A DNA stretch of 64,000 nt from Nitrososphaerota archaeon (GCA_041641295.1 JBEPYO010000001.1:448001-512000); one strand, 5' to 3'. Shown: positions 7,928 through 38,271, counted from the first letter of the stretch. A program made the numbers and translations. The notes: generated by a model from the sequence alone, not told the origin.

Positions 7928-7929
7928 TT

Positions 7930-18586: not shown

Positions 18587-19603
18587 TCAGAACACTAAAA
18601 CCACTTTTCCAATATTTTCTCTCCTCTCGACGATGCCTAGCGCCTCTGATGCCCTTTCGACCGGTAATCGCGTGATTGCTGGTTTGAGGCGGCCAGACCC
18701 CCAAAGCTCCAGAGCCTCTTCCATGTTCCTTCGCGTAGAGCCTACGGCGCCGACCACCATGTTTTCTCTAAGTATCATGTAGCCTAGAGGTACCTTTACA
18801 TTACCGACTGAGACGTTTCCAATCACGACTACGCGGCCTCCCCACGCCGTCGATCTTAGCGACTGCTCAAATGTTGGGGTGCCCACACACTCTAAAACAA
18901 CGTCGACACCCTCGCCCCCCGTTATCTCTCTTACCCTCGCGGAGAGCTGCTCAACACCTATTATGACGTGGTCTGCCCCGGCCTTCTTGATACTCTCTGC
19001 CTTGGAGCTGCTTGAGGTGTTGGCGACCACCTTGCACCCCAGTAGCTTGGATATCATGACCGCGTGGATTCCGACCCCGCCCCCAGCACCTGTAACTAGT
19101 ACCGTCTCACCTGCCCTAACCTTCGCTTGGTCTCTTAACGCATGAATTATCATTCCCAAGACACAGCCGGTTATTGAGGCATCTGCTAAGTCGACCGTGT
19201 CTGGAACCTTAACCAAGTCTCTCGCATTTACTACTATGTACTCGGCCCAAGAGCCGTCCCTCTCCTCACCTAGCTGGAGCCTGTTTCTGCATAGATTCTC
19301 CCTCCCCTCCAGACAGTATCTGCATCTGCCGCATGTGGTGTGTGGTAGGCCAGCCACCCTATCACCAACCTCCAAGCCCTCTACACCCTCACCCAGCTCG
19401 ACGACAACCCCTGAAAACTCGTGCCCCATCACGACTGGACGCTTGGCCCTCGGCATCATCCCCCGCTGATTGAGGAGGTCGCGGTAACAGACACCCGCAG
19501 CCTCCACCTTGACCACGACCTCGCCTCGCCCCGGACGCGAAGGCTCCTGCACACTGGCAATCAGTAGATTGGACTCCTCCTGTCTAAGGATTACAGCCTT
19601 CAA
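18587..19603 (-). CDS. Zn-dependent MDR alcohol dehydrogenase, similar to Sulfolobales acryloyl-CoA reductase
   Basis: CYRDL, GHE, CGRCRYC...C, TGAGGGVGIHA. Confidence 0.8.
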   Translation of the reverse strand: MKAVILRQEESNLLIASVQEPSRPGRGEVVVKVEAAGVCYRDLLNQRGMMPRAKRPVVMGHEFSGVVVELGEGVEGLEVGDRVAGLPHTTCGRCRYCLEGRENLCRNRLQLGEERDGSWAEYIVVNARDLVKVPDTVDLADASITGCVLGMIIHALRDQAKVRAGETVLVTGAGGGVGIHAVMISKLLGCKVVANTSSSSKAESIKKAGADHVIIGVEQLSARVREITGGEGVDVVLECVGTPTFEQSLRSTAWGGRVVVIGNVSVGNVKVPLGYMILRENMVVGAVGSTRRNMEEALELWGSGRLKPAITRLPVERASEALGIVERRENIGKVVLVF

Positions 19604-19649
19604 ACCTCACCAACAATATGAAAATAGTTAGTCGGCGGCATATTCTGTC

Positions 19650-21755: not shown

Positions 21756-21964
21756 GAATAGGCACTAGTCCACGGTGGCATATTTTCCTTTCCAGCACAG
21801 CACACTGCACGCCTAACGCTCTTCTCACGATAATCCAGCCTCCAAGACGACAACGCCACCGCTCAGATACTGCCAAACCCCCTGTAAAATCGCCTTCACA
21901 GCCTCTAAATGGGGAATGCCCCGCAAAAGCCAGTCCACCCATTAAATCGGCCCTAAGGCCCGGT

Positions 21965-21977
21965 GAAACTTAAAAAC
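21965..21977 (+). promoter_or_regulatory. BRE/TATA promoter of tRNA-Asp
   Basis: GAAACTTAAAAAC about 35 nt upstream of the tRNA. Confidence 0.5.
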
Positions 21978-22010
21978 AACCACATAATAACATAGCAACG
22001 GAGGCAAAAA

Positions 22011-22085
22011 GCCTGGGTAGTATAGCCAGGTCTAGTATCGGCGGCTGTCGCCCGCCGGACCCGGGTTCAAATCCCGGCCCAGGCG
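22011..22085 (+). tRNA. tRNA-Asp(GTC), no intron, CCA not encoded
   Basis: Acceptor stem GCCTGGG/CCCAGGC; anticodon stem GGCGG/CCGCC with GTC at 22047-22049; T arm CCGGGTTCAAATCCCGG. Confidence 0.96.
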
Positions 22086-22299
22086 CCTTATATTATCTCG
22101 CCACGTATTCGCATTGACGTGTAAGTGTAGTGAGGTTGAGTGTTGAAGAGAGATTTGTTGTGTGTTCTTCACACTATATTCTACGTTGGGGCTTTCCTCC
22201 TCCATTCTCTAATGGTTGTGGGGGTCTTTGATCTTACCGCTATTCGAAATATTACCACGAAACTCGAGGTAAGACTGCGGGCTTAAATATTAGGGAGGG

Positions 22300-22704
22300 G
22301 TGATGGGGTTGGGGCTTATGTCTGTGGTGAAGGGCTCGTCTTCTGTTCCTGAGGAGCCTGTGGATAACGCGGTGGATACTTTTATCCAGTGGCTTATTGA
22401 TAGGCGTGATGGCGCGCCCAATTTTGAGCTGAGAAAGTTCAGGATTAAGCGGGGTGGAATGATTCCCCCTCACATGCACCCGGATATTGAGCATATCCAG
22501 TACGTGCTGAGGGGGAGGTATAGGGTCAAGCTGGGTGATAGGGAGGTCGTCGTGAGTAGGGGAGATGCAATACTGATACCCGCGGGGACAGTGCACGCAT
22601 ACTACAACGACGGCGAAGAGGATGCCGAGTTCCTATGCATCATCCCGAGAAAAAGCGAGTACAAGACAGTATGGGTGGATGAACAACCTCCGAGGAGCTG
22701 CTAA
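22300..22704 (+). CDS. Cupin domain protein
   Basis: PPHMHPDIEH and IPAGTVHAY metal motifs; start may be ATG 22318. Confidence 0.85.
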   Translation: MMGLGLMSVVKGSSSVPEEPVDNAVDTFIQWLIDRRDGAPNFELRKFRIKRGGMIPPHMHPDIEHIQYVLRGRYRVKLGDREVVVSRGDAILIPAGTVHAYYNDGEEDAEFLCIIPRKSEYKTVWVDEQPPRSC

Positions 22705-22774
22705 CTGTGCAGATAAAAACGATGCATGGTGGAGATGCGATAGAATTAAATAAAAGTGCACTATTAAATCGTCC

Positions 22775-23656
22775 GTGCCCAAGTTTGAAGTTGATACAAA
22801 ATATATTCACGGAATGCTGGATCCCAAGTATATAGGTAAACCCGAAGAAGTACTCATAAAACCAATTCTCAAATTATTCGGCGAAGAGGTAGAGGTTTAT
22901 GACTTATCCCATCCATTCGGCCCCGGTGTTCCTCTCTGGCCATACTTCCCAGACATAAGGGTTGAAAGAATGCACTACCACGCTAAATCACGTGTCCTGT
23001 CCCAAGTGATAACTACAGTGATGCATGTCTCTACCCACGCAGACGCGCCAGTACATGTTGAAGAAGGATTTCCCTCCATAGACCAAGTGCCTATTGAAAG
23101 ATACATGGGTGATGGAGTGGTCGTATCTATTCCTAAAGGAAAGTGGGATGTAATAACAGCTGAAGATTTAGAAAAAGCCGATCCACCTATTGAGCGGGGC
23201 GACATAGTTATCGTAAACACGGGCTGGCATAAGTATTGGGGAGATACAGTGAAATACTTCTGTTATGCCCCTGGTTTCTATAAAGAGGCAGGCGAGTGGT
23301 TCGTAAAGAAAGGGGTGAAGGCGGTCGGCATAGATACACAAGCCTTAGACCACCCCCTGGGGACGAGAGAAGTCTGGTACCAAGATGGGGGAGACGAAAG
23401 AAACGTCGTAGTACCATGGCTGGCTGATGAATATAAAAAAGAGACTGGAAGAGATGTCCGTGAAGACTTTCCATACTGGGAGCCATGCCACAGACTGTTG
23501 CTGACACATGGGATCGTCGGCTGGGAAAACGTTGGCGGAGACATAGACAAAGTAACGGGCAAACGATGCTTCATAATAGGGTTACCGATAAGATGGGTTG
23601 GCGGAGACGCATCAATAGTTAGGCTAGTTGCAATAGTCAAAAAATCCAAAGCGTGA
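22775..23656 (+). CDS. Cyclase/kynurenine formamidase family metallohydrolase; candidate dihydrophloroglucinol cyclohydrolase
   Basis: MHVSTHADAP (HxxTHxDAP), IVNTGWH, GIDTQALDHP, ENVGGDID; adjacent to the SDR and cupin. Confidence 0.8.
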   Translation: MPKFEVDTKYIHGMLDPKYIGKPEEVLIKPILKLFGEEVEVYDLSHPFGPGVPLWPYFPDIRVERMHYHAKSRVLSQVITTVMHVSTHADAPVHVEEGFPSIDQVPIERYMGDGVVVSIPKGKWDVITAEDLEKADPPIERGDIVIVNTGWHKYWGDTVKYFCYAPGFYKEAGEWFVKKGVKAVGIDTQALDHPLGTREVWYQDGGDERNVVVPWLADEYKKETGRDVREDFPYWEPCHRLLLTHGIVGWENVGGDIDKVTGKRCFIIGLPIRWVGGDASIVRLVAIVKKSKA

Positions 23657-23661
23657 TAATA

Positions 23662-24498
23662 TTACGTCCAGCTAGTCACTCCACCGTCAATGTATAGTAT
23701 CTGGCCAGTGACAAAATTTGACGCATCAGAAGCAAAATAAACGATAGCCCCTATCAAATCGTCTGGCACCCCCCACCTACCCAGCAATATTCTTGACAAC
23801 ATACTCTTTGAAAGCTCTGGATCTCTCATAATGTGAGACGTTAATGGAGTGGCTATGACTGTCGGGGCTATAGCATTGACTTGGATATTGAACTTCGCCC
23901 ACTCACAGGCAAGCTGCTTGGTAAGCATGTTGACGGCACCCTTGCTGGTACAATATGCCACATAATTTCTTGGAAGACCAAAAGCTCCTCTAACGGAGGA
24001 GACATTAATTATTTTACCCTGTCTCTGCCGTATCATTACTTTTCCCACTTCTCGGCATGATAGGAACACTCCTGTAACGTTTACATCCATTACAGTCTTC
24101 CAATCCTCGAGAGGATATTCTTCGGCTGGCCTTAGAATATTAATTCCAGCATAATTGACGAGAATATTTATCTTTCCAAAATTATCGACAGCCTCCTTAA
24201 CCATGTTCTTAACATCGTCAGGCTTAGTTACGTCGCATGGTACGGGGAGACATTTTCTCCCCAGCTGCTCGACCTCTTTTCTCACACGCTCCAGTTTATC
24301 CATATTCCGCCCTACTACCACTATGTCCGCCCCAAAGTCGGCCAGTCCCAAAGCTGTTGGCCTACCTAGACCTCCCCCGCCTCCAGTTATCACAGCAACT
24401 CGCCCTGAAAGATCGAAGAGCTTACGGTAGCCCATAGATCCGCTTTTTATCCTCTCGTCCAGCGATTTCTGGTACTCATCTAGATAGGAGTCGCTCAT
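23662..24498 (-). CDS. Short-chain dehydrogenase/reductase; candidate phloroglucinol reductase
   Basis: TGGGGGLG, VGRN (basic residue suggests NADP preference), SSVRG, YCTSK, VNAIAPTV, DGG. Confidence 0.8.
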   Translation of the reverse strand: MSDSYLDEYQKSLDERIKSGSMGYRKLFDLSGRVAVITGGGGGLGRPTALGLADFGADIVVVGRNMDKLERVRKEVEQLGRKCLPVPCDVTKPDDVKNMVKEAVDNFGKINILVNYAGINILRPAEEYPLEDWKTVMDVNVTGVFLSCREVGKVMIRQRQGKIINVSSVRGAFGLPRNYVAYCTSKGAVNMLTKQLACEWAKFNIQVNAIAPTVIATPLTSHIMRDPELSKSMLSRILLGRWGVPDDLIGAIVYFASDASNFVTGQILYIDGGVTSWT

Positions 24499-24505
24499 CT
24501 ATTCA

Positions 24506-24856
24506 TCATCCCTTCTTCTCAGGGTATGCGCTGATAACCAACATAGTAGCAGGCAAGTTAGTCTTATTGATGATTGCTCGCTTCTCGCCAGCCTCTATGT
24601 AAAGCGAATCGAAGGGTTCCAACACTATTTCCTTACCATCCTCCGTAATGATGGTAAGCTTGCCTGAGAGCATGACGTATACTTTATCAGAATCATTCAC
24701 CGAAGATTCAGCACCTCCGCCGGGCAAATAGTGAGACAAGCCGACCCAAAACGACTTCGTGCCAGTAGTGTCTCTGTGATGGAGTCTCAGAGCCACCATG
24801 TTAAAGTGTTTAGGCGGGTCGTAGGGTTTTGCCTCTTCCAACTTGACGAGCTTCAT
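24506..24856 (-). CDS. Cupin domain protein lacking the His metal ligands
   Basis: FWVGLSHYLPGGGAE, KVYVMLSG; start ATG 24856 or TTG 24880. Confidence 0.75.
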   Translation of the reverse strand: MKLVKLEEAKPYDPPKHFNMVALRLHHRDTTGTKSFWVGLSHYLPGGGAESSVNDSDKVYVMLSGKLTIITEDGKEIVLEPFDSLYIEAGEKRAIINKTNLPATMLVISAYPEKKG

Positions 24857-25133
24857 TTTTGATCGTAGATTTTCACGCAATACCCAATATTTGAAGTTTT
24901 ACGAAGTTCATTTAAAGCCTAGAACTAACTTTCACTACTGCAGAACACGTATACACATTACCACTATATAGGCCCAGTCGGCCTTGCAGCTCAATCTTAG
25001 CCATAAAACCATCACCAACAGATCCTCCTGGGCACGAGAATGAAGGTGCGTTTCCGATCAAAGCATCTCTTCCCAACGAGTATAGGATACTCTACAAAAA
25101 CCCCTTGAAAAATTTAACAAATCTGGTCAACAA

Positions 25134-26120
25134 CTAGCTGGAACTATTGGAATCATTAGCTAAGAAATAATTTGATAGATCTTCGGCCCGTTGCAGCTTC
25201 AAGATTTCAAGAAGAGCTTTGTTTCTTCTCTTTACTATTTCGCTTATAGCAACCTGCTGATACGCATAAAAACCTCTACCGCTCTTAACTCCAAGTAGTC
25301 CATTTGCAACATATCTCGCAAGTCTTGCTGAAGGGGTAAACCTTTCCCCCAACCTTTGAGCGAGATACTCTAGCGCCTGCAAGAAAACGTCGAGTCCCCC
25401 CAGATCAGCGATCTGAAAGGGACCCAGCATGGGATACCTTAAACCCACTGTAAGTCTAACTACTTTATCTATATCCGAGGGAGAGGCAAGATTTTCATCC
25501 AACATTCTCATAGCTTCTGCGAACAATGCTGCCTGCAGACGAACACCAATACCACCAGGTGAGTCCTTACACACCACCACCTCTTTTCCTAGCTTTTTAG
25601 TAAATAGATCTACAACTTTTTTTATGATGTCCTCGTTATAATCTGTCTTTATTATTTCAACCAAGGGCATTAGGTATGGAGGGTTCCACCAATGCGTTCC
25701 CACAACCCTCTCTTTGTGTCTTACTTCCTTCGCAATCTCCGAAATCTTAAACGACGAGGTATTCGTAGCTAGAATAACATCTTTTCCACAAAAATCGTCA
25801 AGCTCCTTGAATAGCCTAATTTTTAACTCAAGTACCTCCGGCGCTGCCTCAGTTACAATTTCGACACTCCCTCTAACAGCACTCTGTAGGGAAGTGGTTG
25901 TCGATACTCTTTCTAAAAAATCGTTGCTACTCCCATGCTTTAGAGCACCAAATAAGGAGGGGTCCTCCAAAATGTTTTTAATGTTTTTTACACTTTTTTT
26001 AAGGATTTCTTCATCAACATCAACCAGTGTAACTTCGTATCCCGCTGTCAAGTAAACTACTGCTATACCAGTTCCCATTAAACCAGAGCCTATTATTACT
26101 GTCTTCGGCGCAGAACTCAT
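25134..26120 (-). CDS. 3-Hydroxyacyl-CoA dehydrogenase family protein; candidate 3-hydroxy-5-oxohexanoate dehydrogenase
   Basis: GSGLMGTG, EAAPE, TNTSS, HWWNPP, DLGGLD, GVKSGRGFY. Confidence 0.85.
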   Translation of the reverse strand: MSSAPKTVIIGSGLMGTGIAVVYLTAGYEVTLVDVDEEILKKSVKNIKNILEDPSLFGALKHGSSNDFLERVSTTTSLQSAVRGSVEIVTEAAPEVLELKIRLFKELDDFCGKDVILATNTSSFKISEIAKEVRHKERVVGTHWWNPPYLMPLVEIIKTDYNEDIIKKVVDLFTKKLGKEVVVCKDSPGGIGVRLQAALFAEAMRMLDENLASPSDIDKVVRLTVGLRYPMLGPFQIADLGGLDVFLQALEYLAQRLGERFTPSARLARYVANGLLGVKSGRGFYAYQQVAISEIVKRRNKALLEILKLQRAEDLSNYFLANDSNSSS

Positions 26121-26142
26121 TTTCTTTCCCGCACACCATTAA

Positions 26143-27351
26143 TCATTTGAGTTTCTTCACAATATTTAGAAATTCCTCGTCTGTAAGCGCTCGTCTTAGC
26201 CTTATAGCTTCCTCCTTAACAAGATCAACTAGCTTGGCTATCTCCGACTCTGACAATTTAATGTTGAACTCCTTCAGTTTATACTCTATACTTGTGGCAC
26301 CACTCTTCTTACCGACTACTATCTTGACCGGCGGGCGCCCCACTAATGATGGCAGGTATGGCAACATACCTAGCTGAAGGCCTGCCTCTTCGCACATTTT
26401 CCACATGAATACTACCAAACCTGATTCGAAAGTGAACTGGTTGTCGCCTACCACGGCCTTCGTTGGTGAAGGCTTAAACCGCGTTATTTCCGCCACGAGT
26501 TTTGACACCTCATAGATCTTCTCGAGCTTGATTCCGGTATCTACACCCATTAAGAGTTTCAACGCTAATGCAACCTCCTCTGTAGCAGGGTTGCCCGTCC
26601 TCTCTCCAAGCCCATTTACACAACAGTGTACATACTCAGCACCCGCTTGAATAGCTGCCAGATAGTTCGCAACGCCAAGCCCGAAATCATTATGGGTATG
26701 CCACTCTATTGAGACCCCGCTGCCTACCCATTTTCTGACTTGTCTGACCCTAAGCTTTACTGCATCAGGAAGACACATACCGAACGTATCGGCTATGACC
26801 ACTGAATCACATTTAGCCTCTTTGACAACCTGCGTCACAGCTCTCTCAACAAATGATGGATCGGCCCTGGCAGCATCTACAGCCATGAATGAGACATAGA
26901 GTCCATGTTCCTTTGCATACTCATGGATCTCGATATACTTTTGAATTGCTTCCTCCTCACCCCACTTGAACAATGCTTTGATGCTCTTGGGGTTGATAAG
27001 TGTGTCCGTCACAATCGCTTTTACCTCGGTATCCAAAGCAGCATCTATGTCTTCTTTTTTAGCTCTACAAAGACAAGTTACCTGTGCCCTTAATCCTTGA
27101 CGCACCAATTCCCTTATGGCTTTTTTGTCTTCTTCTGAAACTACGGGCATACCTGCCTCGATGCGTGAGACACCAAGCTCATCCAACGCGATAGCTATTC
27201 GAATCTTATCCTCTTTCGTCAGAGTTACTCCCGGAGTCTGCTCACCATCACGTAAAGTTATATCATGAATATGTACGCGGTCAGGAATGGACCAGTCTCT
27301 TCTTACATCAGGGAGCTCGTTAAGCGGTGTTACCCACCACTTTTCCCCCAT
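26143..27351 (-). CDS. DRE-TIM metallolyase (homocitrate/isopropylmalate synthase-like) without a LeuA regulatory domain
   Basis: DITLRDGEQTPG, HTHNDFG, NGLGERTGN, GKKSG. Confidence 0.82.
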   Translation of the reverse strand: MGEKWWVTPLNELPDVRRDWSIPDRVHIHDITLRDGEQTPGVTLTKEDKIRIAIALDELGVSRIEAGMPVVSEEDKKAIRELVRQGLRAQVTCLCRAKKEDIDAALDTEVKAIVTDTLINPKSIKALFKWGEEEAIQKYIEIHEYAKEHGLYVSFMAVDAARADPSFVERAVTQVVKEAKCDSVVIADTFGMCLPDAVKLRVRQVRKWVGSGVSIEWHTHNDFGLGVANYLAAIQAGAEYVHCCVNGLGERTGNPATEEVALALKLLMGVDTGIKLEKIYEVSKLVAEITRFKPSPTKAVVGDNQFTFESGLVVFMWKMCEEAGLQLGMLPYLPSLVGRPPVKIVVGKKSGATSIEYKLKEFNIKLSESEIAKLVDLVKEEAIRLRRALTDEEFLNIVKKLK

Positions 27352-27572
27352 AGACTACATGCACCTCACCAAACGCCCATAAAGGTGTAAAATAAATGTT
27401 CTTTAAGGAGGAGCCGGCTATGCACTGTTTTTTGATTAAAACCGGTTCACTAGGATGCTAAAAGACCAGCATTATACTTTTGACAAATTAATATACGCCA
27501 ATTGTTGAATTTGTAAGTTACAGTTCACGCCAGCGACCATGGATGTAAACAAATATATGCATTAATGTTTAA

Positions 27573-28997
27573 ATGCAGGCACATATCCTAACAAACGACA
27601 TGTCTCGAATCAAAAACCAGCACTCGCTTCCACTCAGAGCTGCAATAACTAAAGTCACCGCGATAATCCTTGCATCCATAGTCGTTGTGGCTGCCGTTGC
27701 CGCAGTTTTGTACTATGTGATGGTTGTACAAGCCCCAGCCGCCCCCGAGGTAATAAAAATTGGATGGCCAGTTCCACTCACAGGCCCAATAGCATCATTC
27801 GGAGAGCCAGACCCATGGGTTGCACAACAGATTGAACAGGTCGTTAATCGCGATGGAGGAGTCTTCCTATCAGCATATAACAAGAAGGTACCTATCAAAA
27901 TCATAATCAGAGACACAAAGAGCGATCCTAACTTCGCGGCTACAGTCGCCGAAGAGCTAATTACCCGTGAACAAGTAGACCTTATAGTTGTCCTCCATAC
28001 ACCGGGAACCACTGTTCCAGTAAGCGGTGTCTGTGAGAGGTATAAAGTGCCTTGCATAGTTTATGACACCCCCGTTTTAGCGTGGCTTCAGGGTGGACCA
28101 TACGAATGGTCATTTTTAGCATTCTGGACAGAAGTAGATGTAGCTCAAATCTTCGTTGGGATATGGGATAAACTCGGGGCAAAAACCAACAAAGTAGTAG
28201 CGGGAATATGGAGTGACGATCCAGACGGCCGCACATTCCGAGAACTTACAATTGCATTAGCCCAGGCTAGAGGGTACAAAGTCATTGATTCAGGTGTCGT
28301 ACCATATGGAACTCTGGACTTTTCAGCCTATATACGGGAGTGGAAGGCACAGGGTGCAGAGATACTGACAGGCAACCTAATACCACCAGACTTTGCAACA
28401 CTCTGGAGACAGAGCAGAGAGCTTGGATTCATTCCCAAAGTAGCCACCATAGGCAGGTCCATCCTCTTCCCATCGTCAGTTGAGGCTTTAGGCGGAGACC
28501 TAGGTATCGGTCTCACAACCGAAGTATGGGTGCACAAAGTTTCACCTTTCAGGTCTTCTCTTACAGGGCAAACTCCAAGAGAACTTGCTGAAGAGTATGA
28601 GAGGGCAACTGGGAAGCAATGGTCCACGCCTCTAATATTCTCCCACGCGGCCTTCGAAAATGCAATAGACGCTCTGAAGCGCGCAGGAAGTCTAGATAAG
28701 GAGAAGATAAGGGACGCTATCGCCAATACCGATTTAGACACCATCGTTGGTCATATAAACTTCAAAAGAAGCCTAACAGAGATACTTACACCTGAAGAGT
28801 TGGAATTGTATAAAAAGTACCCTGCTCTAATACAATACCAAAACAGTTATTCCATTACTCCAGTAATTGGAGGCCAATGGGTCAAAGGTACAAAGTGGCC
28901 TTATGAACTCGAAGTAGTGTATAACTGGAAGTACGATAATATACCAGAAACTGCAGAACTCAAAACGATCCCAGAACTTCTCGGCACCGGAGGATAA
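27573..28997 (+). CDS. ABC transporter substrate-binding protein (LivK-like)
   Basis: N-terminal TM helix; KIGWPVPLTGPIASFG, DTKSDP. Confidence 0.85.
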   Translation: MQAHILTNDMSRIKNQHSLPLRAAITKVTAIILASIVVVAAVAAVLYYVMVVQAPAAPEVIKIGWPVPLTGPIASFGEPDPWVAQQIEQVVNRDGGVFLSAYNKKVPIKIIIRDTKSDPNFAATVAEELITREQVDLIVVLHTPGTTVPVSGVCERYKVPCIVYDTPVLAWLQGGPYEWSFLAFWTEVDVAQIFVGIWDKLGAKTNKVVAGIWSDDPDGRTFRELTIALAQARGYKVIDSGVVPYGTLDFSAYIREWKAQGAEILTGNLIPPDFATLWRQSRELGFIPKVATIGRSILFPSSVEALGGDLGIGLTTEVWVHKVSPFRSSLTGQTPRELAEEYERATGKQWSTPLIFSHAAFENAIDALKRAGSLDKEKIRDAIANTDLDTIVGHINFKRSLTEILTPEELELYKKYPALIQYQNSYSITPVIGGQWVKGTKWPYELEVVYNWKYDNIPETAELKTIPELLGTGG

Positions 28998-29028
28998 ATT
29001 CGGCAGCATTTAAATAATAAAGTTCAAA

Positions 29029-29763
29029 ATGATCGGCATGCTTGAAGTAATTGGACTCACAAAACGTTTCGGAGCCTTGACGGCCGTTAAAAATGTAAGT
29101 TTTAAAATTAGCGAGAAAGAGATAGTGGGTTTGATTGGCCCGAACGGCTCTGGAAAAACAACTCTCTTTAATCTTATTTCTGGATTTTATAAACCAGATT
29201 CTGGCAAAGTGATGTTCAGGGACCATGAAATTAGTGGTCTTCCTCAGCATAAAATTTGCAAAATGGGCATTGCGCGGACTTATCAAATTCCTAGGCCGTT
29301 TCTAGAAATGAGCGTGCTTGAAAATGTTATGATCGGTGCATTATATGGTGCAGATGAAAGCCTAGGTAAAAGCCGTTCCCACGCATTGGAGTGCTTAAAG
29401 TTTGTAGGCCTAGAGAAGAAAAAAGATGTCCCCGCCCATAATCTTAACGTCTCAGAAAGAAAAATGCTTGAGATAGCTAGAGCCTTAGCTACGAAGCCCA
29501 AACTTTTGCTACTTGATGAACCTCTAAGCGGATTAAATCCGAAAGAAGTAGCGCAGGCTAGAGAACTCATTAGAAGAATTAGAGACGACTTCGGCGTCAC
29601 CGTGTTTTGGATTGAGCATATTATGAGAGCCCTAAGGGGTGTGGTTGAACGCGTTATCGTATTGAACTATGGAGAAAAGATTGCTGAAGGGTCTTTTGAA
29701 GTGGTATCCAGTAGCAGTAAAGTAATAGAGGCTTATCTGGGAGAAAAATGGGTAATTGGGTGA
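29029..29763 (+). CDS. ABC transporter ATP-binding subunit (LivG-like)
   Basis: GPNGSGKT, LDEPLSGL. Confidence 0.9.
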   Translation: MIGMLEVIGLTKRFGALTAVKNVSFKISEKEIVGLIGPNGSGKTTLFNLISGFYKPDSGKVMFRDHEISGLPQHKICKMGIARTYQIPRPFLEMSVLENVMIGALYGADESLGKSRSHALECLKFVGLEKKKDVPAHNLNVSERKMLEIARALATKPKLLLLDEPLSGLNPKEVAQARELIRRIRDDFGVTVFWIEHIMRALRGVVERVIVLNYGEKIAEGSFEVVSSSSKVIEAYLGEKWVIG

Positions 29764-29769
29764 TACGTA

Positions 29770-30477
29770 ATGTTAGAGGTTGAGGGAGTAAACGTGTTTT
29801 ACGGCGATCTGCAAGTACTTTGGGATATATCCCTTAAGGTGGACAAAGGGGAAAAAGCAGCATTAATTGGCCCAAACGGGGCTGGAAAAACAACACTCTG
29901 CAAAACCATAATAGGTGCACTTCCCCCTAAAACTGGTTCGATAACTTTTCTGGGGAAGCGGATAGATAAACTTTCAATACCTGAAATTATAAGGCTTGGA
30001 ATAGCCATCGTACCTGAGGGGAGAGGACTTTTCGGCAACATGACAGTAATGGAGAACCTTGAACTCGGGGCCTACGCTTCAGATGTGAGGAGAAAATATA
30101 ACGATACGTTAGAATGGGTGTTTAGCCTATTTCCACTATTAAAGGAGAGAAAAAACCAGCTGGCAGGTCTTATGAGTGGGGGTGAACAACAAATGCTAGC
30201 CATAGCGAGAGCATTAATGTCGAAGCCCAAGCTGCTTATATTGGATGAGCCTTCACTGGGCCTCGCCCCTAAAATAGTGCTAAAAGTATACGAGGTGATA
30301 AGAAAGATTTGTGACGAAGGAGTGACTGTGCTGCTCGTTGAGCAGTACGCAGGCCATGCTTTGGAAAATTCTGATAAGGGCTTTGTGCTAGAAAATGGGA
30401 GAATTGTAATAGAGGGGCCATCAGAGAAACTTCTTAAAGACGAAAAAGTTAGGAAAGCTTACCTAGGGGAAGAATGA
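29770..30477 (+). CDS. ABC transporter ATP-binding subunit (LivF-like)
   Basis: GPNGAGKT, MSGGEQQML, DEPSLGLAP. Confidence 0.9.
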   Translation: MLEVEGVNVFYGDLQVLWDISLKVDKGEKAALIGPNGAGKTTLCKTIIGALPPKTGSITFLGKRIDKLSIPEIIRLGIAIVPEGRGLFGNMTVMENLELGAYASDVRRKYNDTLEWVFSLFPLLKERKNQLAGLMSGGEQQMLAIARALMSKPKLLILDEPSLGLAPKIVLKVYEVIRKICDEGVTVLLVEQYAGHALENSDKGFVLENGRIVIEGPSEKLLKDEKVRKAYLGEE

Positions 30478-31346
30478 TGGAGATACTCAGTTACATAAAT
30501 CTCATATTGAATGGCTTATTGCTTGGGGGACTCTTCGCTCTAACAGCTTTCGGCTTATCAGTGCTAGCCGGCATAATGAGAGTTATCAATATAGCGCACG
30601 GCGACTTTGCAATCCTAGCCGCATATTTGTCACTTACCATTATGAATTCTTTCGGAATGGATCCATTTTTAAGTTTAGTCTTTGTAGCGCCAATAATGTT
30701 TGCGGTGGGCTACTTTTTCCAAAAATTCACAATAAACAGAGTCCTTGCGATGGGGGCAAACCAAGTGGTTCTAGTAACATTTGCCTTGAGCATTGTAATC
30801 CAAAACCTTCTGCTCTTAATATTTACTGCTGACGCGAGGAGCTTGATAACGCCGTACCTTCTTACAAATATAGAGCTGTTTGGACTGAATCCATCACCAC
30901 GCTACGCTGTAGGCTTCATTTCGGCTTTAATAGTGTTCGGACTGATCTTCATCTTTTTCAAGAAAACATACTTAGGCAAGGCTATGCGTGCTGTCCCCTT
31001 CGACCCCGAAGCAGCAAAAATGATTGGAATAAAATCTGAAGTCATCTACAATTATGCCGCCGGATTAGCCCTATTAGTGGTGGCCATAGCCGGAGTACTG
31101 CTGGGCTTGGCTTTCACTTTTTATCCCGATACGGGTCCAATGTACGTACTACTTTCTTTCGGTGTCGTTGTTATGGGAGGTTTGGGAAGTTTGAAAGGTA
31201 CTTTGATTGGAGGATTTATCCTAGGTGAAGCATTAGTCTTGGGAGGCTTCTTCTTCGGTTCACGATTTCAGCTAATGTTCTGCTATCTCGTCATACTAGC
31301 CATCCTATATCTGAGACCTCGAGGGCTCTTCGGGGGGAAAGTTTAG
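30474..31346 (+). CDS. ABC transporter permease (LivH-like)
   Basis: VINIAHGDF, VVMGGLGS, RPRGLFG. Confidence 0.88.
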   Translation: MMEILSYINLILNGLLLGGLFALTAFGLSVLAGIMRVINIAHGDFAILAAYLSLTIMNSFGMDPFLSLVFVAPIMFAVGYFFQKFTINRVLAMGANQVVLVTFALSIVIQNLLLLIFTADARSLITPYLLTNIELFGLNPSPRYAVGFISALIVFGLIFIFFKKTYLGKAMRAVPFDPEAAKMIGIKSEVIYNYAAGLALLVVAIAGVLLGLAFTFYPDTGPMYVLLSFGVVVMGGLGSLKGTLIGGFILGEALVLGGFFFGSRFQLMFCYLVILAILYLRPRGLFGGKV

Positions 31347-31347
31347 A

Positions 31348-32280
31348 GTGTTGGAGTTAAAAAGCCGTTACATCTACATTGTCATTTTGCTAGCTGTTCT
31401 TACCTCGCTGCCTTTATGGGTTGGAGGCTTCCTAAGAGATGCGCTAATATTGTTCTTCCTATATTTGGCTGCTGCAGAAGTTTGGGGGTTTATGGCCAAG
31501 CACGCGGGTATAGTCTCTCTTGGCCAACAAATTTTTATAGGGGTCGGAGGCTATACGACGGCTGTTCTTTCCATGTATTTTGGAATCCCCATGTATGCTA
31601 GCGTTATAATATCTGGGCTCCTTGGAGCCGGCTTGGCTGGCCTGCTATCCTTTCCACTTTTGAGGTTACGTGGTGTTTACTTTGCAATAGGCACTTTTCT
31701 TGCAGCGGAAGTTATTAGACTTGCCTTTAGTGGCTGGGAATTTGTGGGTGCTGGCAAGGGACTGATATTTAGAGACGCTTATGGCATTCCTACGACTATA
31801 ATCTACTATCCTGCCTTAGCCCTTGCAGTAATTTCAATTTTCTTGGTATACCTGCTATATCATTCAAAGTTAGGATTTGGGTTAAGAAGCATAGGGGCAG
31901 ATGAGGATGTTGCCTGTGGACTTGGAGTAAACACCTTCGTGTGTAAAGCCACGTGCTTCATCCTCGCTTCACTTATCACGACCCTTGTAGGAGCTGTTAA
32001 TGTTATTCATCATACGTACCTTCACCCCACCTCAGCCTTCAGCATTTCGTGGACTGTAAACTTCCTTTTCGTGGCTGTTATCGGAGGGGTGGGGACAATA
32101 GTAGGACCAATAATTGGCAGCGCGTTATTTGTAGCGTTCGGGTACTTATTTGCCCAATACCTAGGACTCAGCCTCCTTTTAGAAGGCCTGATTGTACTCG
32201 CGATCCTGATAGCTCTTCCGCAAGGAGTCTGGAGCGCCATTTCTAGAAAATTAAAACTAAATCTAAAACCACCGCTATAA
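31348..32280 (+). CDS. ABC transporter permease (LivM-like)
   Basis: SLGQQIFIGVG, RLRGVYFAIGT, IGGVGTIVGP. Confidence 0.88.
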   Translation: MLELKSRYIYIVILLAVLTSLPLWVGGFLRDALILFFLYLAAAEVWGFMAKHAGIVSLGQQIFIGVGGYTTAVLSMYFGIPMYASVIISGLLGAGLAGLLSFPLLRLRGVYFAIGTFLAAEVIRLAFSGWEFVGAGKGLIFRDAYGIPTTIIYYPALALAVISIFLVYLLYHSKLGFGLRSIGADEDVACGLGVNTFVCKATCFILASLITTLVGAVNVIHHTYLHPTSAFSISWTVNFLFVAVIGGVGTIVGPIIGSALFVAFGYLFAQYLGLSLLLEGLIVLAILIALPQGVWSAISRKLKLNLKPPL

Positions 32281-32521
32281 AGCTAAAAGCATCAACGTGT
32301 CATATTTTAATATCGCGTGGAAAATGATATTGCTAACCACGCCGTTATAAAGACAAGCTAACGTTTAGTCGTCATCAACACTATTTTTTTAAATACTCTA
32401 AAATTGCTACTATAGCGAAGGCCGTTCTATTACCAGATTCAGTAGGAGGAAGATTAGCAACAGAAGATAGGTCTGTGGGAGGCAGGCTTAAGTAGAGAAA
32501 ATATTATATACAAGTTATCGA

Positions 32522-33880
32522 TTGCTTATGGACATGAAAATGCCTATTTCTGCAGCAGCTATTACAAAAATGCATGCAATAATAATGGCCGTAGTTATTA
32601 TCATAGCCGCTGTAGGCGCGAGTGCTTCTTATTACTTAACGCTGAGGCCAGGCGCTCCAGAATACATAAAAATTGGATGGCCAGCCCCCCTTACCGGAAC
32701 TCTTGCCGGATTTGCTGAGACAACACCATGGATGGCACAACAAGTGGAGGATTATGTCAACAATAAGTTGGGTGGAATATATCTCTCAGAATACGGCAAA
32801 AAAATCCCAATAAAAATAATCATAAGAGATACAAAAAGCGATCCTGACCTCGCAGCAACCATAGCAGCCGAACTGATAACTAAAGATAATGTTGACATAA
32901 TGTTGGCGCTTTATTCTCCAGCTATGACGAATCCCATAAGTGCGCAATGCGAGAAATATGGAGTACCATGCATAGTTTCGCAGACAATACTATTGTCTTG
33001 GCTCATGGGGGCCCCCTACGAGTGGTCTTACGCCATAGGCTTAGCCGAGCCAGACTTCGCAATATTGTTCTTTGATTTATTTGATTCGATGGGAGATAAA
33101 GTAAACAAAAAGGTTGCCATGATTAATGCAGATGACCCTGATGGAAGAGGTTTTTCAGAATCGATAAAAATAGTAGCAAAAGCGCGTGGGTATACGCTTA
33201 TCGATGCTGGGCTAGTGCCTTATGGTGCGGCAGACTATTCTTCATATATCTATAATTGGAAGAGTTCGGGAGCGGATATTCTCACAGGCAACATGCTTTT
33301 TGTAGATTTTGCAACCCTCTGGAGACAGTGTAACGAGCTGGGTTATAAGCCAAAAATCGTGGCCATGTCGAGAGCGTTGCTGTTTCCTTCATGGGTAGAG
33401 GCAATAGGCGGCGAACTACCCAACGGGCTAATAGGATATACCTGGTGGTCGCCTTTCCACCCCTATAAGTCATCTATAACTGGACAGACTGCGAGCCAGC
33501 TAGTTGAGGCTTGGGAAGCTCACAGCGGTAAACAGTGGACACCAGTACTAGGCCTCACGCACGCTGTACTGGAGGTAGCTATAGACGCGGTTAAAAGGGC
33601 AGGAAGCCTTGACAAAACAAAAATAAGAGACGCCCTAGCCGAAACCAACCTTAACACTATAGCAGGACCTGTCAATTTTAAGGCACCTCTAACACCACAA
33701 CAGCAGGCGCGATACCGGCCATTCGAAAATCTAATGAAGTACAAGGATCATTATGTCGTTGTGAGCCCGGTGGCAATTCAATGGGTTAAGGGATCCAAGT
33801 GGCCTTGGGAGATGCAGGTAATCTATAATTGGGAGAGCCCAGAGATACCTGAAACAGCCAAGATGTTCCTTTTAAGCTAA
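32522..33880 (+). CDS. Second ABC substrate-binding protein, paralogue of 27573-28997
   Basis: Shares IKIIIRDTKSDP, DFATLWRQ, DAxKRAGSLDK and KWPxE...YNW with the first binding protein. Confidence 0.85.
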   Translation: MLMDMKMPISAAAITKMHAIIMAVVIIIAAVGASASYYLTLRPGAPEYIKIGWPAPLTGTLAGFAETTPWMAQQVEDYVNNKLGGIYLSEYGKKIPIKIIIRDTKSDPDLAATIAAELITKDNVDIMLALYSPAMTNPISAQCEKYGVPCIVSQTILLSWLMGAPYEWSYAIGLAEPDFAILFFDLFDSMGDKVNKKVAMINADDPDGRGFSESIKIVAKARGYTLIDAGLVPYGAADYSSYIYNWKSSGADILTGNMLFVDFATLWRQCNELGYKPKIVAMSRALLFPSWVEAIGGELPNGLIGYTWWSPFHPYKSSITGQTASQLVEAWEAHSGKQWTPVLGLTHAVLEVAIDAVKRAGSLDKTKIRDALAETNLNTIAGPVNFKAPLTPQQQARYRPFENLMKYKDHYVVVSPVAIQWVKGSKWPWEMQVIYNWESPEIPETAKMFLLS

Positions 33881-34108
33881 GATCCACCTTTATTTTCTAA
33901 CCTCTCCTTTCAAGAACTTTAGTGAAACATCTACTAGATGTTGTTATCTAATCGAAAGGCTGTTTACCCTTCCAAAGAGTTGCCTCCCTCCTACGTTTTG
34001 GGACCGTATCGACACAGCAGTTCGATGGTGAAAGGCTTAAATACAAAGCGGTAGGGCAGAAAACTGTGTATACTGATCATTTGATAAAGTCAAGAAGGGT
34101 GTCTTTGG

Positions 34109-35128
34109 ATGGAGATAATAGATTTTGAAGCACACTTTTATACAAAAGAGTATGTTAAAGCTTTGATAAAAAACAAAAGCTATCCAAAATACAAAAAGGA
34201 TAGAGAAAAGAACATTCATTGGCTGTGGTATGCTCCCAACGTGTTAGAGCCTCACACAGGACAACTTCTAGAAAGACTTCTTGACTTGAGTGAGAAGCGA
34301 TTTAAGGATATGGCCGAGGCAGGAGTGAAAATGCAGGTTTTGAGTCTTTCTGCACCGGGATGCGAACAGTTTAACCCTCCACTAGGTACTAAACTCGCAA
34401 AAAAGGTTAATGATGAGTTGTCCAGAATTGTGGAGAAAAATCCAGACAAATTTGTCGGTTTAGCCGCCCTTGCGCCTCAAGACCCCGGAGAGGCTGCAGA
34501 TGAGCTTGAAAGGGCTGTGAAAGAGTTGGGGCTTAAAGGATGGAAAACCCACTCCAATATACGTGGAACATATCTTGACAATAAAAAATTTTGGATTATA
34601 CTGGAAAAAGCTGAGAAGTTAGGTGTTCCCATATTTTTACACCCAACCATTCCCTTGATCAGAGAGCTTAGAAAGAGTTACGGATATGCTTTGGCTGGAC
34701 CTGCTTTCGGCTTTACCTTTGATACGGCTTTATGTATGATGCGTTTAATTTTAAGCGGAGTTTTTGATAAGTATCCCAATCTAAAGTTCGTATTGGGACA
34801 CTTGGGCGAGGCCATGCCTTTCCTTCTTAATCGGCTTGACTTTCCGTTTGTAAGACCATGGGTTACTCAGGGAGTGAAGATGAAACTTTCAAAGAAGCCC
34901 AGTGAATACTTCAAAAATAATGTCTATGTAGGTACAAGTGGCGAATTCCACAATTCAGCTCTAATATGCACTGTTCAGACAATGGGTTACGACAAAGTTC
35001 TGTTCGCTTCAGACTATCCTTATGAACATACAGCAAAGGCTGTAGACCGCATAAATGCGTTGCCATTGTCGGATGAGGAAAAAACAAGAATCTATCATTT
35101 AAATGCGAAAAATATCTTAGGCCTTTAA
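34109..35128 (+). CDS. Amidohydrolase_2 family non-oxidative aromatic acid decarboxylase (gamma-resorcylate/LigW-like)
   Basis: DFEAHF, MQVLSLSAPG, FLHP, GHLGE, FASDYPYE. Confidence 0.8.
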   Translation: MEIIDFEAHFYTKEYVKALIKNKSYPKYKKDREKNIHWLWYAPNVLEPHTGQLLERLLDLSEKRFKDMAEAGVKMQVLSLSAPGCEQFNPPLGTKLAKKVNDELSRIVEKNPDKFVGLAALAPQDPGEAADELERAVKELGLKGWKTHSNIRGTYLDNKKFWIILEKAEKLGVPIFLHPTIPLIRELRKSYGYALAGPAFGFTFDTALCMMRLILSGVFDKYPNLKFVLGHLGEAMPFLLNRLDFPFVRPWVTQGVKMKLSKKPSEYFKNNVYVGTSGEFHNSALICTVQTMGYDKVLFASDYPYEHTAKAVDRINALPLSDEEKTRIYHLNAKNILGL

Positions 35129-35222
35129 AAATGGTTTATAGACGTGTCAACAAAATTTTATGTGCGGTGTTCCTAATCTCCTTGCGTTCAATAGGGTTAA
35201 AAATAGAGGTTTGAGTGGATGG

Positions 35223-35852
35223 TTATTTTCTCGCCCCAATATTGTATAGGTAGGGTAGGAGGACGGAAAGGTTTCTCATTTCTTCTGCGCAATGCTGAAA
35301 GAGGTTTTTAGCTATATCGTAGCTGGTGTACGTTGGGTTTAGCCAGAAGCGGCTGCGCATTTCGCAACCCACATCGATATTCCGGACAAAGTGGGTCATG
35401 AAGCCGGCCTCGAGCTCTGTTCCTTCCCCACGGATATACAGACGGGCACAGATAGCTGTTGCTCGTGCCTTCTCAAACTTTGATACATCATAAAAATTTG
35501 CTGGATCTTGAAAGTGGATCCTCAGTTTTACTACAGGTGGTTTGCCTCCGAGGGTTTCGTCCACTATGTGACTGGCTCCAATGTAATTGCCTGGAGTCCA
35601 ACGGTCATCCCAAACACCATGTATGTGATCCACGGGATGCCAAAGTTTGTATATTTGAGTATGCTCTTTAGGAGAAAGGCCATAGGCGAACCACCACTCT
35701 ATCATTTTTCTATCGCAAAAGGGCATTCTCGTGAGTACGGCTACAAGGTAATATCCGTTTGATAAGCGAATATATCCGCTTTCTAGGGGCAAATAGCCTG
35801 GGTCTAGAAGGCGATCGATCTGGTCAACCGTTAATTCTAAATTTTCAGACAT
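35223..35852 (-). CDS. PhlG/phloretin hydrolase-like C-C hydrolase
   Basis: LESGY, MIEWWFA, YKLWHPVDH, EMRSRFW and HCAEEMRNL match the DAPG hydrolase PhlG family, including candidate Zn ligands; start ATG 35852 or upstream GTG. Confidence 0.8.
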   Translation of the reverse strand: MSENLELTVDQIDRLLDPGYLPLESGYIRLSNGYYLVAVLTRMPFCDRKMIEWWFAYGLSPKEHTQIYKLWHPVDHIHGVWDDRWTPGNYIGASHIVDETLGGKPPVVKLRIHFQDPANFYDVSKFEKARATAICARLYIRGEGTELEAGFMTHFVRNIDVGCEMRSRFWLNPTYTSYDIAKNLFQHCAEEMRNLSVLLPYLYNIGARK

Positions 35853-36279
35853 GGTATCACTTCTCACCTTTGACTGAGCGCTATTGCGGTATAAATAACT
35901 TTTATTTAAGCCCACCTCAGATGTGCATCACTGTTGATTAGTGACACGCCTACATTGGTTTGGGTTTTAGGCGGTGAGTTCTGCATTAGTAATATGCCTT
36001 TTTTTAAAAATACTGCCTATCGAAAAATGTAGTTACAGCGCCTGTGTATGGTGCTGGTAAGACCCCCTCTATGATCCTATCCCTTCTCAATAGCGATTGG
36101 GCCTCCCGTATTAGTTGGAATCTTGAAAGTTGTAAACGCCGCTAATGGCTATGCGATGATCTTCTCGGTTTATGTCTCATATTCTTTTTGGAGATACTTT
36201 GATGTCGATCCATTTCTATCCATACCTCGTATGGCATAGATGATTTACTGGAGCTGAATATTTAAAAACTAGTCTAAAG

Positions 36280-38271
36280 ATGGTTTTGATAACAGACTTG
36301 AGTAAGCTTCTCTGGCAACCTGCGTATGAAGATGTGGCGAAGGCGAACATCAAGCGGTTTATGGAGCTTGTCAACGCGAAGAATGGTCTATCTCTAGATC
36401 CGTTTGAGAAGGGCGCCTACTTCCATCTCTATGAATGGAGTGTTACGGATATTCCGGCTTTCTGGGATAGTGTATGGGAGTTTGTCGGGATAAGAGCAGT
36501 CGAGCATTATGATATGGTTGTGGATGATTTAGATAAATTCCCTGGGGCTAAATGGTTTGTGGGTGCAAGGCTAAACTTCGCGGAGAATCTCTTGAAAGCC
36601 GAGGTTGACCGTCCGGCGCTAATATCAAGGAGGGAAGACGGCTATTCGAGGAGTGTTTCATACCAAGAGTTGAGGGGGCTAGTAGGTGGCCTCTCAAAGG
36701 GTCTGCTAGAAGAGGGGATAGGTGTTAATGATCGAGTCGCCGCATATATGCCCAATATCATCGAGACGAGCGTGGCTATGTTAGCCGCCACGTCGCTGGG
36801 GGCTTCATGGTCCTCGATAGGTACTGAGATGGGGGTTGATTCTGTCATTGATAGGTTTGGACAGGTGGAGCCTAAGGTTTTGTTCACTGTCGACGGCTAC
36901 ATATATAGGGGTAAAGAGTATGATGTCTTAGAGAGGGTTAGGGAAATTGCGAGAAATATCCCATCTATTAAGCGGATCGTTATTGTGCCTTATCTGAGGG
37001 ATAATCCGCGCATAGACCACATTCCGAAAAGCATCTTAATCGACAATTTCATGTCTGCTAAGAGTGCACCATCATACACTCATGTTCCTGCCTCCTCCCC
37101 CTTGTATATCATGTTCTCATCAGGTACTACAGGAAAGCCGAAATGTATGGTGCAGCCAATAGCCGGTGTCCTAGTAAATCATCTGAAAGAGCTTGTCATA
37201 CACACAGATCTTAAGCCTGAAGATGTAGTGACGTATATCACTTCGCCGAGCTGGATGATGTGGAACTGGTTGATGAGCGCTCTCGCTGTAGGATCCACAA
37301 TCTTTCTCTATGATGGCGACCCAAATTATCCGGACTGGAGGACCATGTGGCGGCTTGTAGAAGAACTTGAAATAACGGTCTTTGGCTGCAGTGCAAGCTA
37401 CATAAACAATCTCAGAGGCTTGGCGGCGCGGCCGGGCGAGCTGCACAACCTCGAATCCCTCAGGGAAATATCGCAGACCGGCTCGGCCCTTTCACCGGAA
37501 GGGTTTGAATGGATTTATACAATGGTTAAGAAGGACTTACACTTTAACTCCATTTCAGGCGGTACAGATATAAATGGATGCTTCGCCGCCGGAAGCCCTA
37601 TACTGCCGGTGTACGCAGGGCAGATCCAGTCTCCTGCCCTAGGTATGAAGATAAAGTGCTACAATGAAGAGGGCGAGCCCGTCCTAGATAGGGAGGGGGA
37701 ACTTGTGTGCGAAGCCCCGGCACCATCGATGCCAATATATTTTCTCAATGACGAGGGGTTCGAGAGGTATTTAGACGCATACTTCAGATTTTATACTAAT
37801 AAGCGGGTCTGGAGGCACGGCGACTATGTCATATTCCACAGCGACACAGGGGGGATAACATTCTTGGGGAGAAGCGACGCCACACTTAAGCCCTCGGGCG
37901 TGAGGATAGGCACAGCTGAGATATACCGCGTGCTCGAGAGCTTTCCCGAGATAGTGGATAGTCTTGCCGTGGGGCAGAGCTGGAGAGGGGATCAGAGGAT
38001 AATACTCTTCGTCAAGATGGCTAAAGGATTTATGTTGACTGATGAGTTGATAGATAGGATTAAGAAGGCTCTACGCGAGAGAGCTTCGCCGCGACATGTT
38101 CCTGCTATAGTCATAGAGGTACCTGACATACCTTACACGTTTAATATGAAGAAAGTCGAGATAGCGGTAGCGAATATAGTTAACGGGAGGAAAGTAACTA
38201 ATAAGGCGTCGATAATGAATCCAGAGTCTCTTGATTATTTTGAGAAGATACTCCCTTTGCTCAGGGATTAG
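36280..38271 (+). CDS. Acetoacetate--CoA ligase
   Basis: LNFAENLL, FSSGTTGKPK, SISGGTDI, GRSDATLKPSGVRIG, KKVEIAV. Confidence 0.9.
   Translation: MVLITDLSKLLWQPAYEDVAKANIKRFMELVNAKNGLSLDPFEKGAYFHLYEWSVTDIPAFWDSVWEFVGIRAVEHYDMVVDDLDKFPGAKWFVGARLNFAENLLKAEVDRPALISRREDGYSRSVSYQELRGLVGGLSKGLLEEGIGVNDRVAAYMPNIIETSVAMLAATSLGASWSSIGTEMGVDSVIDRFGQVEPKVLFTVDGYIYRGKEYDVLERVREIARNIPSIKRIVIVPYLRDNPRIDHIPKSILIDNFMSAKSAPSYTHVPASSPLYIMFSSGTTGKPKCMVQPIAGVLVNHLKELVIHTDLKPEDVVTYITSPSWMMWNWLMSALAVGSTIFLYDGDPNYPDWRTMWRLVEELEITVFGCSASYINNLRGLAARPGELHNLESLREISQTGSALSPEGFEWIYTMVKKDLHFNSISGGTDINGCFAAGSPILPVYAGQIQSPALGMKIKCYNEEGEPVLDREGELVCEAPAPSMPIYFLNDEGFERYLDAYFRFYTNKRVWRHGDYVIFHSDTGGITFLGRSDATLKPSGVRIGTAEIYRVLESFPEIVDSLAVGQSWRGDQRIILFVKMAKGFMLTDELIDRIKKALRERASPRHVPAIVIEVPDIPYTFNMKKVEIAVANIVNGRKVTNKASIMNPESLDYFEKILPLLRD

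Follow-up and report, generated by a model that had tools for sequence, protein, structure and literature searches.

What does a LeuA-fold enzyme do at the head of an archaeal operon whose other genes point to the breakdown of phloroglucinol, a hub intermediate in anaerobic flavonoid and tannin breakdown? The question arises at positions 26143..27351 of a 64,000-nucleotide stretch of DNA from a Nitrososphaerota archaeon (GCA_041641295.1 JBEPYO010000001.1:448001-512000; the whole stretch is called the window here), where the gene for a protein designated P0001 lies next to that of a 3-hydroxyacyl(-CoA) dehydrogenase. The reading favored here, at a probability of about 0.4, is that P0001 is a metal-dependent C-C lyase that acts on a C6 intermediate independently of acetyl-CoA. 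The fold of P0001, its retained metal site, its loss of a catalytic Glu/His pair, the replacement of genes carried by related islands and the absence of the β-keto-acid cleavage enzyme (BKACE) are established by the comparisons described below. The genes concerned are these:

22775..23656, (+) strand: cyclase-family protein, dihydrophloroglucinol-cyclohydrolase (DPGC)-like (PF04199)
23662..24498, (-) strand: SDR, phloroglucinol-reductase (PGR)-like (adh_short domains; 77% identity to the SDR of loci L120 and L168)
24506..24880, (-) strand: cupin of the phloroglucinol-cluster type (Cupin_2), after a 253-bp gap from 3HCDH*
25134..26120, (-) strand: 3-hydroxyacyl(-CoA) dehydrogenase of the Caldarchaeum type, 3HCDH* (3HCDH_N and 3HCDH domains)
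26143..27351, (-) strand: P0001, LeuA-fold DRE-TIM protein, candidate C-C lyase (PF00682, 236 bits)
27573..33880, (+) strand: Liv-type ABC transporter, with two binding proteins, two ATPases and two permeases (Pfam)
34109..35128, (+) strand: Amidohydro_2 protein of decarboxylase or hydrolase type (PF04909; 68% identity to L168, 71% to L059)
35223..35915, (-) strand: PhlG/phloretin-hydrolase-like protein (PF18089, 153.8 bits)
36280..38271, (+) strand: acetoacetate-CoA ligase (NF002937, 825.6 bits, cut-off 639; TIGR01217, 770.5 bits, cut-off 520.9)

Judged by its Archaeoglobus-like cyclase and by synteny, and not by the characterized Clostridium scatologenes sequences, the island is of the phloroglucinol type. 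The cyclase shares 80-88% identity with proteins from Caldarchaeum, Bathyarchaeia and Archaeoglobus fulgidus (82% for the last), and the genus Archaeoglobus is included among the holders of the PGR-DPGC-TfD-TAL cluster (Zhou 2023, PMC10470551). Going by Pfam domains and by the Archaeoglobus cyclase, SDR, cyclase and 3HCDH parts of that cluster are present in the island and triacetate acetoacetate-lyase (TAL) is absent; a PDB search with the island SDR gave "gluconate 5-dehydrogenase" as the best match, by which PGR identity is not confirmed. The island transporter is 73-83% identical to the transporter that adjoins the TfD-BKACE pair in L168, and for the acetoacetate-CoA ligase the identity to its L120 and L168 counterparts is 65-67%.

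The island genes between 22775 and 38271 have GC3 values of 0.38-0.54, versus 0.61-0.64 in their neighbors, and the cyclase was found in just 2 of 61 Caldarchaeales genomes searched (the window's own and G054); from these two features we conclude that the island was acquired horizontally. With a GC3 of 0.46, P0001 is itself island-like and not host-like. Archaeal genes flank the island, among them those for an unsplit RNA polymerase A subunit, for RadA and for a heme-copper oxidase; the host belongs to the Caldarchaeales and comes from hot-spring metagenomes. The region 19500-39400 is unbroken in contigs of two studies (possibly the source samples), with four base differences: at 20482, 33544, 34947 and 27177, the last being a T for G in the second study's contigs that changes Leu59 of P0001 to Ile. 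A second cupin gene, with a metal motif (134 aa; Cupin_2, 73 bits), lies at 22300-22704 (+), 70 bp upstream of the cyclase. It resembles the host genes in GC3 (0.63) and belongs to another type than the cupins found with HMGL-like genes elsewhere; L184 was the only one of all the loci compared to contain a homologue.

P0001 and 3HCDH* are encoded on the same strand, 3HCDH* downstream, with 22 bp between them, and P0001 carries the motifs LRDGEQ (residues 33-38) and HTHND (residues 218-222), all of which agrees with the original prediction, made from the sequence of the window, of an RDGEQ/HxHND enzyme co-oriented with a 3-hydroxyacyl dehydrogenase. That prediction had also noted that no aconitase or isopropylmalate dehydrogenase gene is nearby and that the island has no DUF849 or fumarylacetoacetate-hydrolase-family (FAH) gene. 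A Pfam scan of window ORFs of at least 90 aa likewise found no aconitase, isopropylmalate dehydrogenase, BKACE or FAA_hydrolase, and two FAH-family genes of the genome lie about 400 and 800 kb from P0001. A canonical triacetate lyase elsewhere in the genome was looked for as well, and none was found: the search for BKACE (PF05853) throughout the genome, which is 93.8% complete in 5 contigs, gave no match.

Related archaeal islands show what is missing. In L168, of a Bathyarchaeia genome, the order is Amidohydro_2, binding protein, ATPases, permeases, TfD, BKACE, cupin, SDR and ligase, and these genes are 63-83% identical to those of the window with the exception of the dehydrogenase (47%). The pattern in L120 is similar, and the TfD-BKACE pair is present in L120, L165, L167, L169 and L127. 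Going by gene order, P0001 and 3HCDH* stand where related archaeal islands (L120, L168, L167, L165) carry TfD-BKACE. For the dehydrogenase itself, identity is 62-64% with the Caldarchaeum genes of L052, L163 and L164, versus 42-47% with the TfD of BKACE-bearing archaeal islands.

Eighty DPGC loci (L052-L131), from one-per-species genomes that encode a cyclase homologue, were compared for their neighboring genes by tblastn. Homologues of the SDR are present in 70, of the cupin in 60 and of the dehydrogenase in 57, and BKACE is found in the available flanks of 37. Genome-wide Pfam searches for BKACE covered 20 of the 43 genomes without a flanking copy, mostly those with long flanks; BKACE is elsewhere in 16 of these 20 (two by weak matches alone) and is absent from four (G061, G069, G077 and G079). 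The enzyme is absent from the window's own genome and from that of L052, versus its presence in 53 of 57 other DPGC-carrying loci or genomes. An HMGL-like gene accompanies the cyclase in a single one of the 80 loci, L052, and the BKACE-less genomes G069, G077 and G079 have HMGL homologues of LeuA length only, so that the HMGL-like gene is not a general substitute for BKACE and other solutions exist. An HMGL-like gene thus goes together with the lack of BKACE in the window's own genome and in that of L052, and the closest homologues of P0001 are found in other surroundings.

The ORF of P0001 is intact (402 aa, ATG start). Its HMGL-like domain (PF00682) scores 236.3 bits against a cut-off of 29 (E 4.9e-70) and covers profile positions 2-260 of 260; the HCS_D2 match is weak, LeuA_dimer is absent, and PF05853 was not found in the Pfam scan. 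Arg34, Asp35, Glu65, His218 and His220, residues of the superfamily, are present and are (nearly) invariant in 40 relatives; Arg34, Asp35 and Glu65 we take to be the D-R-E residues of the DRE-TIM superfamily. An HMGL-like TIM barrel with the Arg-Asp pair, the Glu and the HxH ligands places the protein among the DRE-TIM metallolyases. None of the 25 best of 29 matching NCBIfam models is exceeded at its cut-off: the best score is 358 bits for NF002085 (cut-off 517), and also below are the 4-hydroxy-2-oxovalerate aldolase models TIGR03217 (90.2 of 286 bits) and NF006049 (101.9 of 229) and the HMG-CoA lyase model NF004283 (64.7 bits, cut-off 246). The top matches in both PDB (best E 3.7e-52) and NCBIfam are LeuA and homocitrate synthases, and the ESM Atlas offers generic names only.

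HMMER alignments to five solved structures of LeuA, homocitrate synthase (HCS) and methylthioalkylmalate synthase (MAMS) place Val158 of P0001, with high posterior probability, opposite the Glu of the xED strand; the two histidines of HESGIH are matched by Phe308 and Val313, and residues 300-345 contain no His. By chain count in PDB 6e1j (BjMAMS), Val158 corresponds to Glu227 and Val313 to His388. Alignments to structures and relatives show that P0001 keeps Arg34, Asp35, Gln38, Thr189, His218 and His220, which are counterparts of metal and 2-oxo-acid ligands in BjMAMS2A according to PMC11532901. The same paper reports undetectable activity for the H388A/D/E/Q and E227A/D variants of BjMAMS2A, and proposes His388 as the general base for acetyl-CoA. 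Since a pair needed in methylthioalkylmalate synthase has been lost, acetyl-CoA-enolate chemistry is unsupported for P0001. The original prediction of a new last-step enzyme must be trimmed to the same extent: its acetyl-CoA-enolate version is unsupported without the Glu/His pair, whereas the place of BKACE is indeed occupied by P0001 in a genome that has no BKACE. Three hallmarks of the Claisen-condensing LeuA, HCS, CimA and MAMS enzymes (a score above the curated cut-off, the general-base His and the xED Glu) are missing, and to judge by these P0001 is not a normal acetyl-CoA-dependent synthase. A LeuA of 511 aa and a citramalate synthase of 538 aa, both over their cut-offs, are encoded elsewhere in the genome, which makes P0001 an extra paralogue; a third paralogue, 468 aa long, has retained the Glu and the second His but passes no cut-off.

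P0001 would then be a divalent-metal DRE-TIM enzyme built on a LeuA scaffold from which acetyl-CoA enolization has been lost. Together with the Caldarchaeum-type 3HCDH* it would have taken the place of TfD-BKACE in a phloroglucinol island acquired horizontally, and its most likely task is the C-C cleavage step of the lower pathway, carried out without acetyl-CoA. A C6 acid would bind the metal (held by Asp35, His218 and His220) through its carboxylate and 3-oxygen, and Arg34 would stabilize the developing enolate. In the HMG-CoA lyase reaction a 3-hydroxy acid is split into a 3-oxo acid and an enolate. (S)-3-hydroxy-5-oxohexanoate has the same skeleton as the substrate of that enzyme (carboxylate, CH2, CHOH, CH2, C=O). 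An HMG-CoA lyase-like retro-aldol reaction, route (a), would give malonate semialdehyde and acetone. In route (b), 3HCDH* would make triacetate and P0001 would cleave it by a hydrolytic retro-Claisen reaction to acetoacetate and acetate, after which the acetoacetate-CoA ligase of the island would activate the acetoacetate. Family-level evidence slightly favors (a), and local gene content slightly favors (b). Three aldehyde dehydrogenases, one hydantoinase/acetone-carboxylase-family gene, four thiolase-family matches and no AOR were found in the genome, an inventory that singles out neither route. Substrate, products and pathway role we infer, the last of these from synteny in two related genomes.

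P0001 does not stand alone in having lost the pair. An exhaustive search of 1.84 billion cluster representatives was made, and the best 150 matches were taken, 132 of them of at least 360 residues. Both Glu and His are missing in 85 of these 132 full-length representatives and both are present in 32; 84 of the 85 nevertheless keep the Arg, Asp/Glu, His and His. A FastTree built from 156 sequences and rooted at its midpoint separates the canonical enzymes from a broad group of Glu/His-less proteins, and there the sister clade of P0001 and its relatives of 57-87% identity carries Trp at position 158. A metagenome scan gave 58 Glu/His-less loci out of 80, and in 13 of the 58 a FAH homologue is near the HMGL-like gene (L265-L288 are among the loci noted). 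The literature searched holds no description of a Glu/His-less LeuA-like enzyme class; the cluster tables of Zhou 2023, which lay outside the search, may list archaeal clusters.

The surroundings of these genes have a common flavor. In the sister clade the order is AOR, ferredoxin, HMGL-like gene, a protein of some 300 aa that matches no Pfam family, metal cupin and cyclase (L031, L046). Nitrososphaeria and Caldarchaeales have this AOR-ferredoxin-HMGL-like-cupin-cyclase module, and variants of it occur in Thermococci and Dehalococcoidia. Caldarchaeum genomes have FAH, HMGL-like and E1_dh genes together, once with a cyclase and an SDR adjoining; L239 has a run of SDR, cyclase, HMGL and SDR; and in one clade (L224, L225) intradiol dioxygenases adjoin the HMGL-like gene. 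FAH and intradiol dioxygenase neighbors suggest roles that follow aromatic ring fission, and adjacent aldehyde-oxidizing enzymes hint at aldehyde products. On the strength of these neighbor genes we take the Glu/His-less family to be catabolic, often following ring-opening enzymes. Partners across the branch (cyclase-family ring hydrolases, SDRs, cupins, FAH hydrolases, AOR and dioxygenases) lend themselves to a wider and distinctly tentative proposal, in which the whole Glu/His-less LeuA-fold branch would consist of acetyl-CoA-independent, metal-dependent C-C lyases of ring fission, with P0001 as its BKACE-free phloroglucinol end, acting as a 3-hydroxy-5-oxohexanoate aldolase or a triacetate hydrolase. 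PEP-utilizers genes are present in the modules of L030 and L032, and a PPDK_N gene in that of L030.

The closest homologues of P0001 (58-61% identity; L025-L029 and L216) have different company, and it is from them that the strongest competing explanation is drawn: P0001 may be a passenger, a pyruvate-type (4-hydroxy-2-oxo-acid) aldolase from a cupin-AOR/sugar-acid module, with no role on phloroglucinol intermediates. In L025 and L026 the HMGL-like gene follows a divergent metal-type cupin and precedes AOR, and L029 matches these two in ORF lengths and order; AOR is present in L216 also. In L027 the HMGL-like gene comes after AP_endonuc_2 and a 452-aa gene without an assigned family (the ORF layout of L028 is the same), and DUF4147/MOFRL glycerate-kinase-like and GFO_IDH_MocA genes are near some of the closest homologues. 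None of the available flanks of L025-L029 and L216 contains phloroglucinol genes. This company counts against the lyase reading, as does the presence of an HMGL-like gene in only one of 80 DPGC loci; a third point is that the scaffold normally binds 2-oxo acids, whose binding residues P0001 keeps, and the phloroglucinol pathway has none. Nevertheless, P0001 is co-oriented and 22 bp from 3HCDH* with an island-like GC3, its own genome has no AOR and, as best match to the partner cupin, only a sequence of 31% identity (E 8e-7) with an internal stop, and a second HMGL-like clade is found by the same dehydrogenase type in L052. A passenger role is a live rival, albeit a rather doubtful one. Identity of the HMGL-associated cupin with the island cupin family was considered and is ruled out, the two being 25-26% identical over part of their length.

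Locus L052, in genome G061, is the same contig as G054:C155, and this Caldarchaeum MAG is the only other Caldarchaeales genome with the island. Its HMGL-like gene is 43% identical to P0001 and belongs to a different clade of the tree. It is the last gene of a tight operon that starts with a second cyclase (61% identical to that of the window) and a second SDR (47%); the operon converges on a DHDPS-family gene, a divergent member of that family, beyond which lies a dehydrogenase of the 3HCDH* type (64%). The occurrence of two HMGL-like lineages by the same dehydrogenase type, in two islands without BKACE, speaks for a functional link. It is important to note that the two genomes are related and have the island in common, and so represent one or two events at most, and that the DHDPS-family gene before the dehydrogenase could be an alternative replacement in L052. 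Locus searches with the L052 HMGL-like gene returned that gene alone, and with P0001 as a single protein returned nothing. At 4854-9679 of L052 the MAG has two PGR/DPGC-like pairs, the second being the one in the operon with the HMGL-like gene.

A second live rival, which we consider unlikely, is a lower pathway through CoA esters. A ligase would form 3-hydroxy-5-oxohexanoyl-CoA, 3HCDH* would oxidize it, and a thiolase encoded elsewhere would cleave the resulting triacetyl-CoA, with a side role or none for the HMGL-like protein. The Caldarchaeum relatives of 3HCDH* do lie in such contexts: they are beside CoA-transferase genes in L163 and L164, and in L163, the one of the two that was Pfam-scanned, enoyl-CoA hydratase, AOR and BcrAD/HGD genes are nearby as well. 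An AMP-forming ligase has been kept in the island, and with the four thiolase-family matches of the genome a CoA-thioester/thiolase route may need no lyase. On the other hand, the ligase scores over both curated acetoacetate-CoA ligase cut-offs and is also found in BKACE-bearing islands, and such a route would not account for an HMGL-like gene, intact and conserved, at the head of the operon here and next to the same dehydrogenase in L052. That P0001 is an ordinary homocitrate, citramalate, isopropylmalate or Re-citrate synthase, as its top NCBIfam and PDB matches and the name "methanogen homocitrate synthase" given to relatives in some sources might suggest, is highly improbable in view of the sub-cut-off NCBIfam scores (358 vs 517), the Val residues at the Glu227 and His388 equivalents, mutation of either of which inactivates BjMAMS2A (PMC11532901), the LeuA and CimA encoded elsewhere in the genome, and the lack of a nearby aconitase or dehydrogenase partner.

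The lyase reading can be set against several known systems. With LeuA, homocitrate synthase and methylthioalkylmalate synthase (PDB 3rmj, 6ktq, 6e1j), P0001 has in common the fold, the subdomains and the Arg/Asp/Gln/Thr/HxH residues; unlike them it has Val for both Glu227 and His388 and Phe for the first His of HESGIH, misses the cut-offs, lacks LeuA_dimer and is found in a catabolic context. HMG-CoA lyase and 4-hydroxy-2-oxovalerate aldolase belong to the same superfamily, have the same metal site and illustrate that the scaffold is capable of retro-aldol chemistry, although P0001 scores weakly against both (64.7/246 and 90.2/286 bits) and is far closer to LeuA. A further aldolase, that of Collinsella sp. 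zg1085, is reportedly of the class I deoxyribose-phosphate-aldolase type. This (S)-3-hydroxy-5-oxohexanoate aldolase (Li 2024), listed under EC 4.1.2.4 and giving acetone and malonate semialdehyde according to a review, is a precedent for the products of route (a); in contrast to it, P0001 is predicted to be a metal-dependent DRE-TIM enzyme, and the window keeps both the dehydrogenase and the acetoacetate-CoA ligase. The TAL of C. scatologenes, a BKACE/DUF849 protein, uses acetyl-CoA and Zn2+ (Zhou 2023, PMC10470551). It has the same island position by the dehydrogenase as P0001 and, if the lyase reading is right, the same job; P0001 differs from it in coming from an unrelated family (its Pfam match is HMGL-like only) and in lacking the acetyl-CoA residues of its own family. 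Non-orthologous replacement of triacetate lyase by P0001 is plausible on these comparative grounds.

Two endings of the phloroglucinol pathway have been published, one by the BKACE lyase and one by the class I aldolase. If the reading of P0001 is true, a third, metal-dependent ending would exist in thermophilic archaea and would widen the recognition of polyphenol turnover in genomes. Beyond this locus, the catalytic pair is missing from hundreds of proteins that carry an isopropylmalate, homocitrate or citramalate synthase annotation and lie in catabolic clusters, and on both counts this annotation is probably wrong. Sequence evidence by itself supports the existence of such a large LeuA-like radiation without the Glu/His pair, and the LeuA scaffold may host a new reaction class.

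Some minor features of these loci deserve mention. The small cupin is conserved in phloroglucinol clusters: 60 of 80 cyclase loci, spread over many phyla, have a homologue. The word "cupin" is never used in the main text of Zhou 2023 (PMC10470551). The Chloroflexota loci L110, L111 and L117 have the cyclase and the dehydrogenase with only a distant SDR (tblastn), and in the genomes of L110 and L117 BKACE is absent and the HMGL homologues are all of LeuA length. In L110, the sole Chloroflexota locus that was Pfam-scanned, an alpha/beta hydrolase is close by and may be another substitute for triacetate lyase. Finally, positions 2495-9246 of the window encode AP_endonuc_2 and GFO_IDH_MocA proteins followed by a second Liv-type ABC transporter, and these same two families flank the closest HMGL-like homologue in L027.
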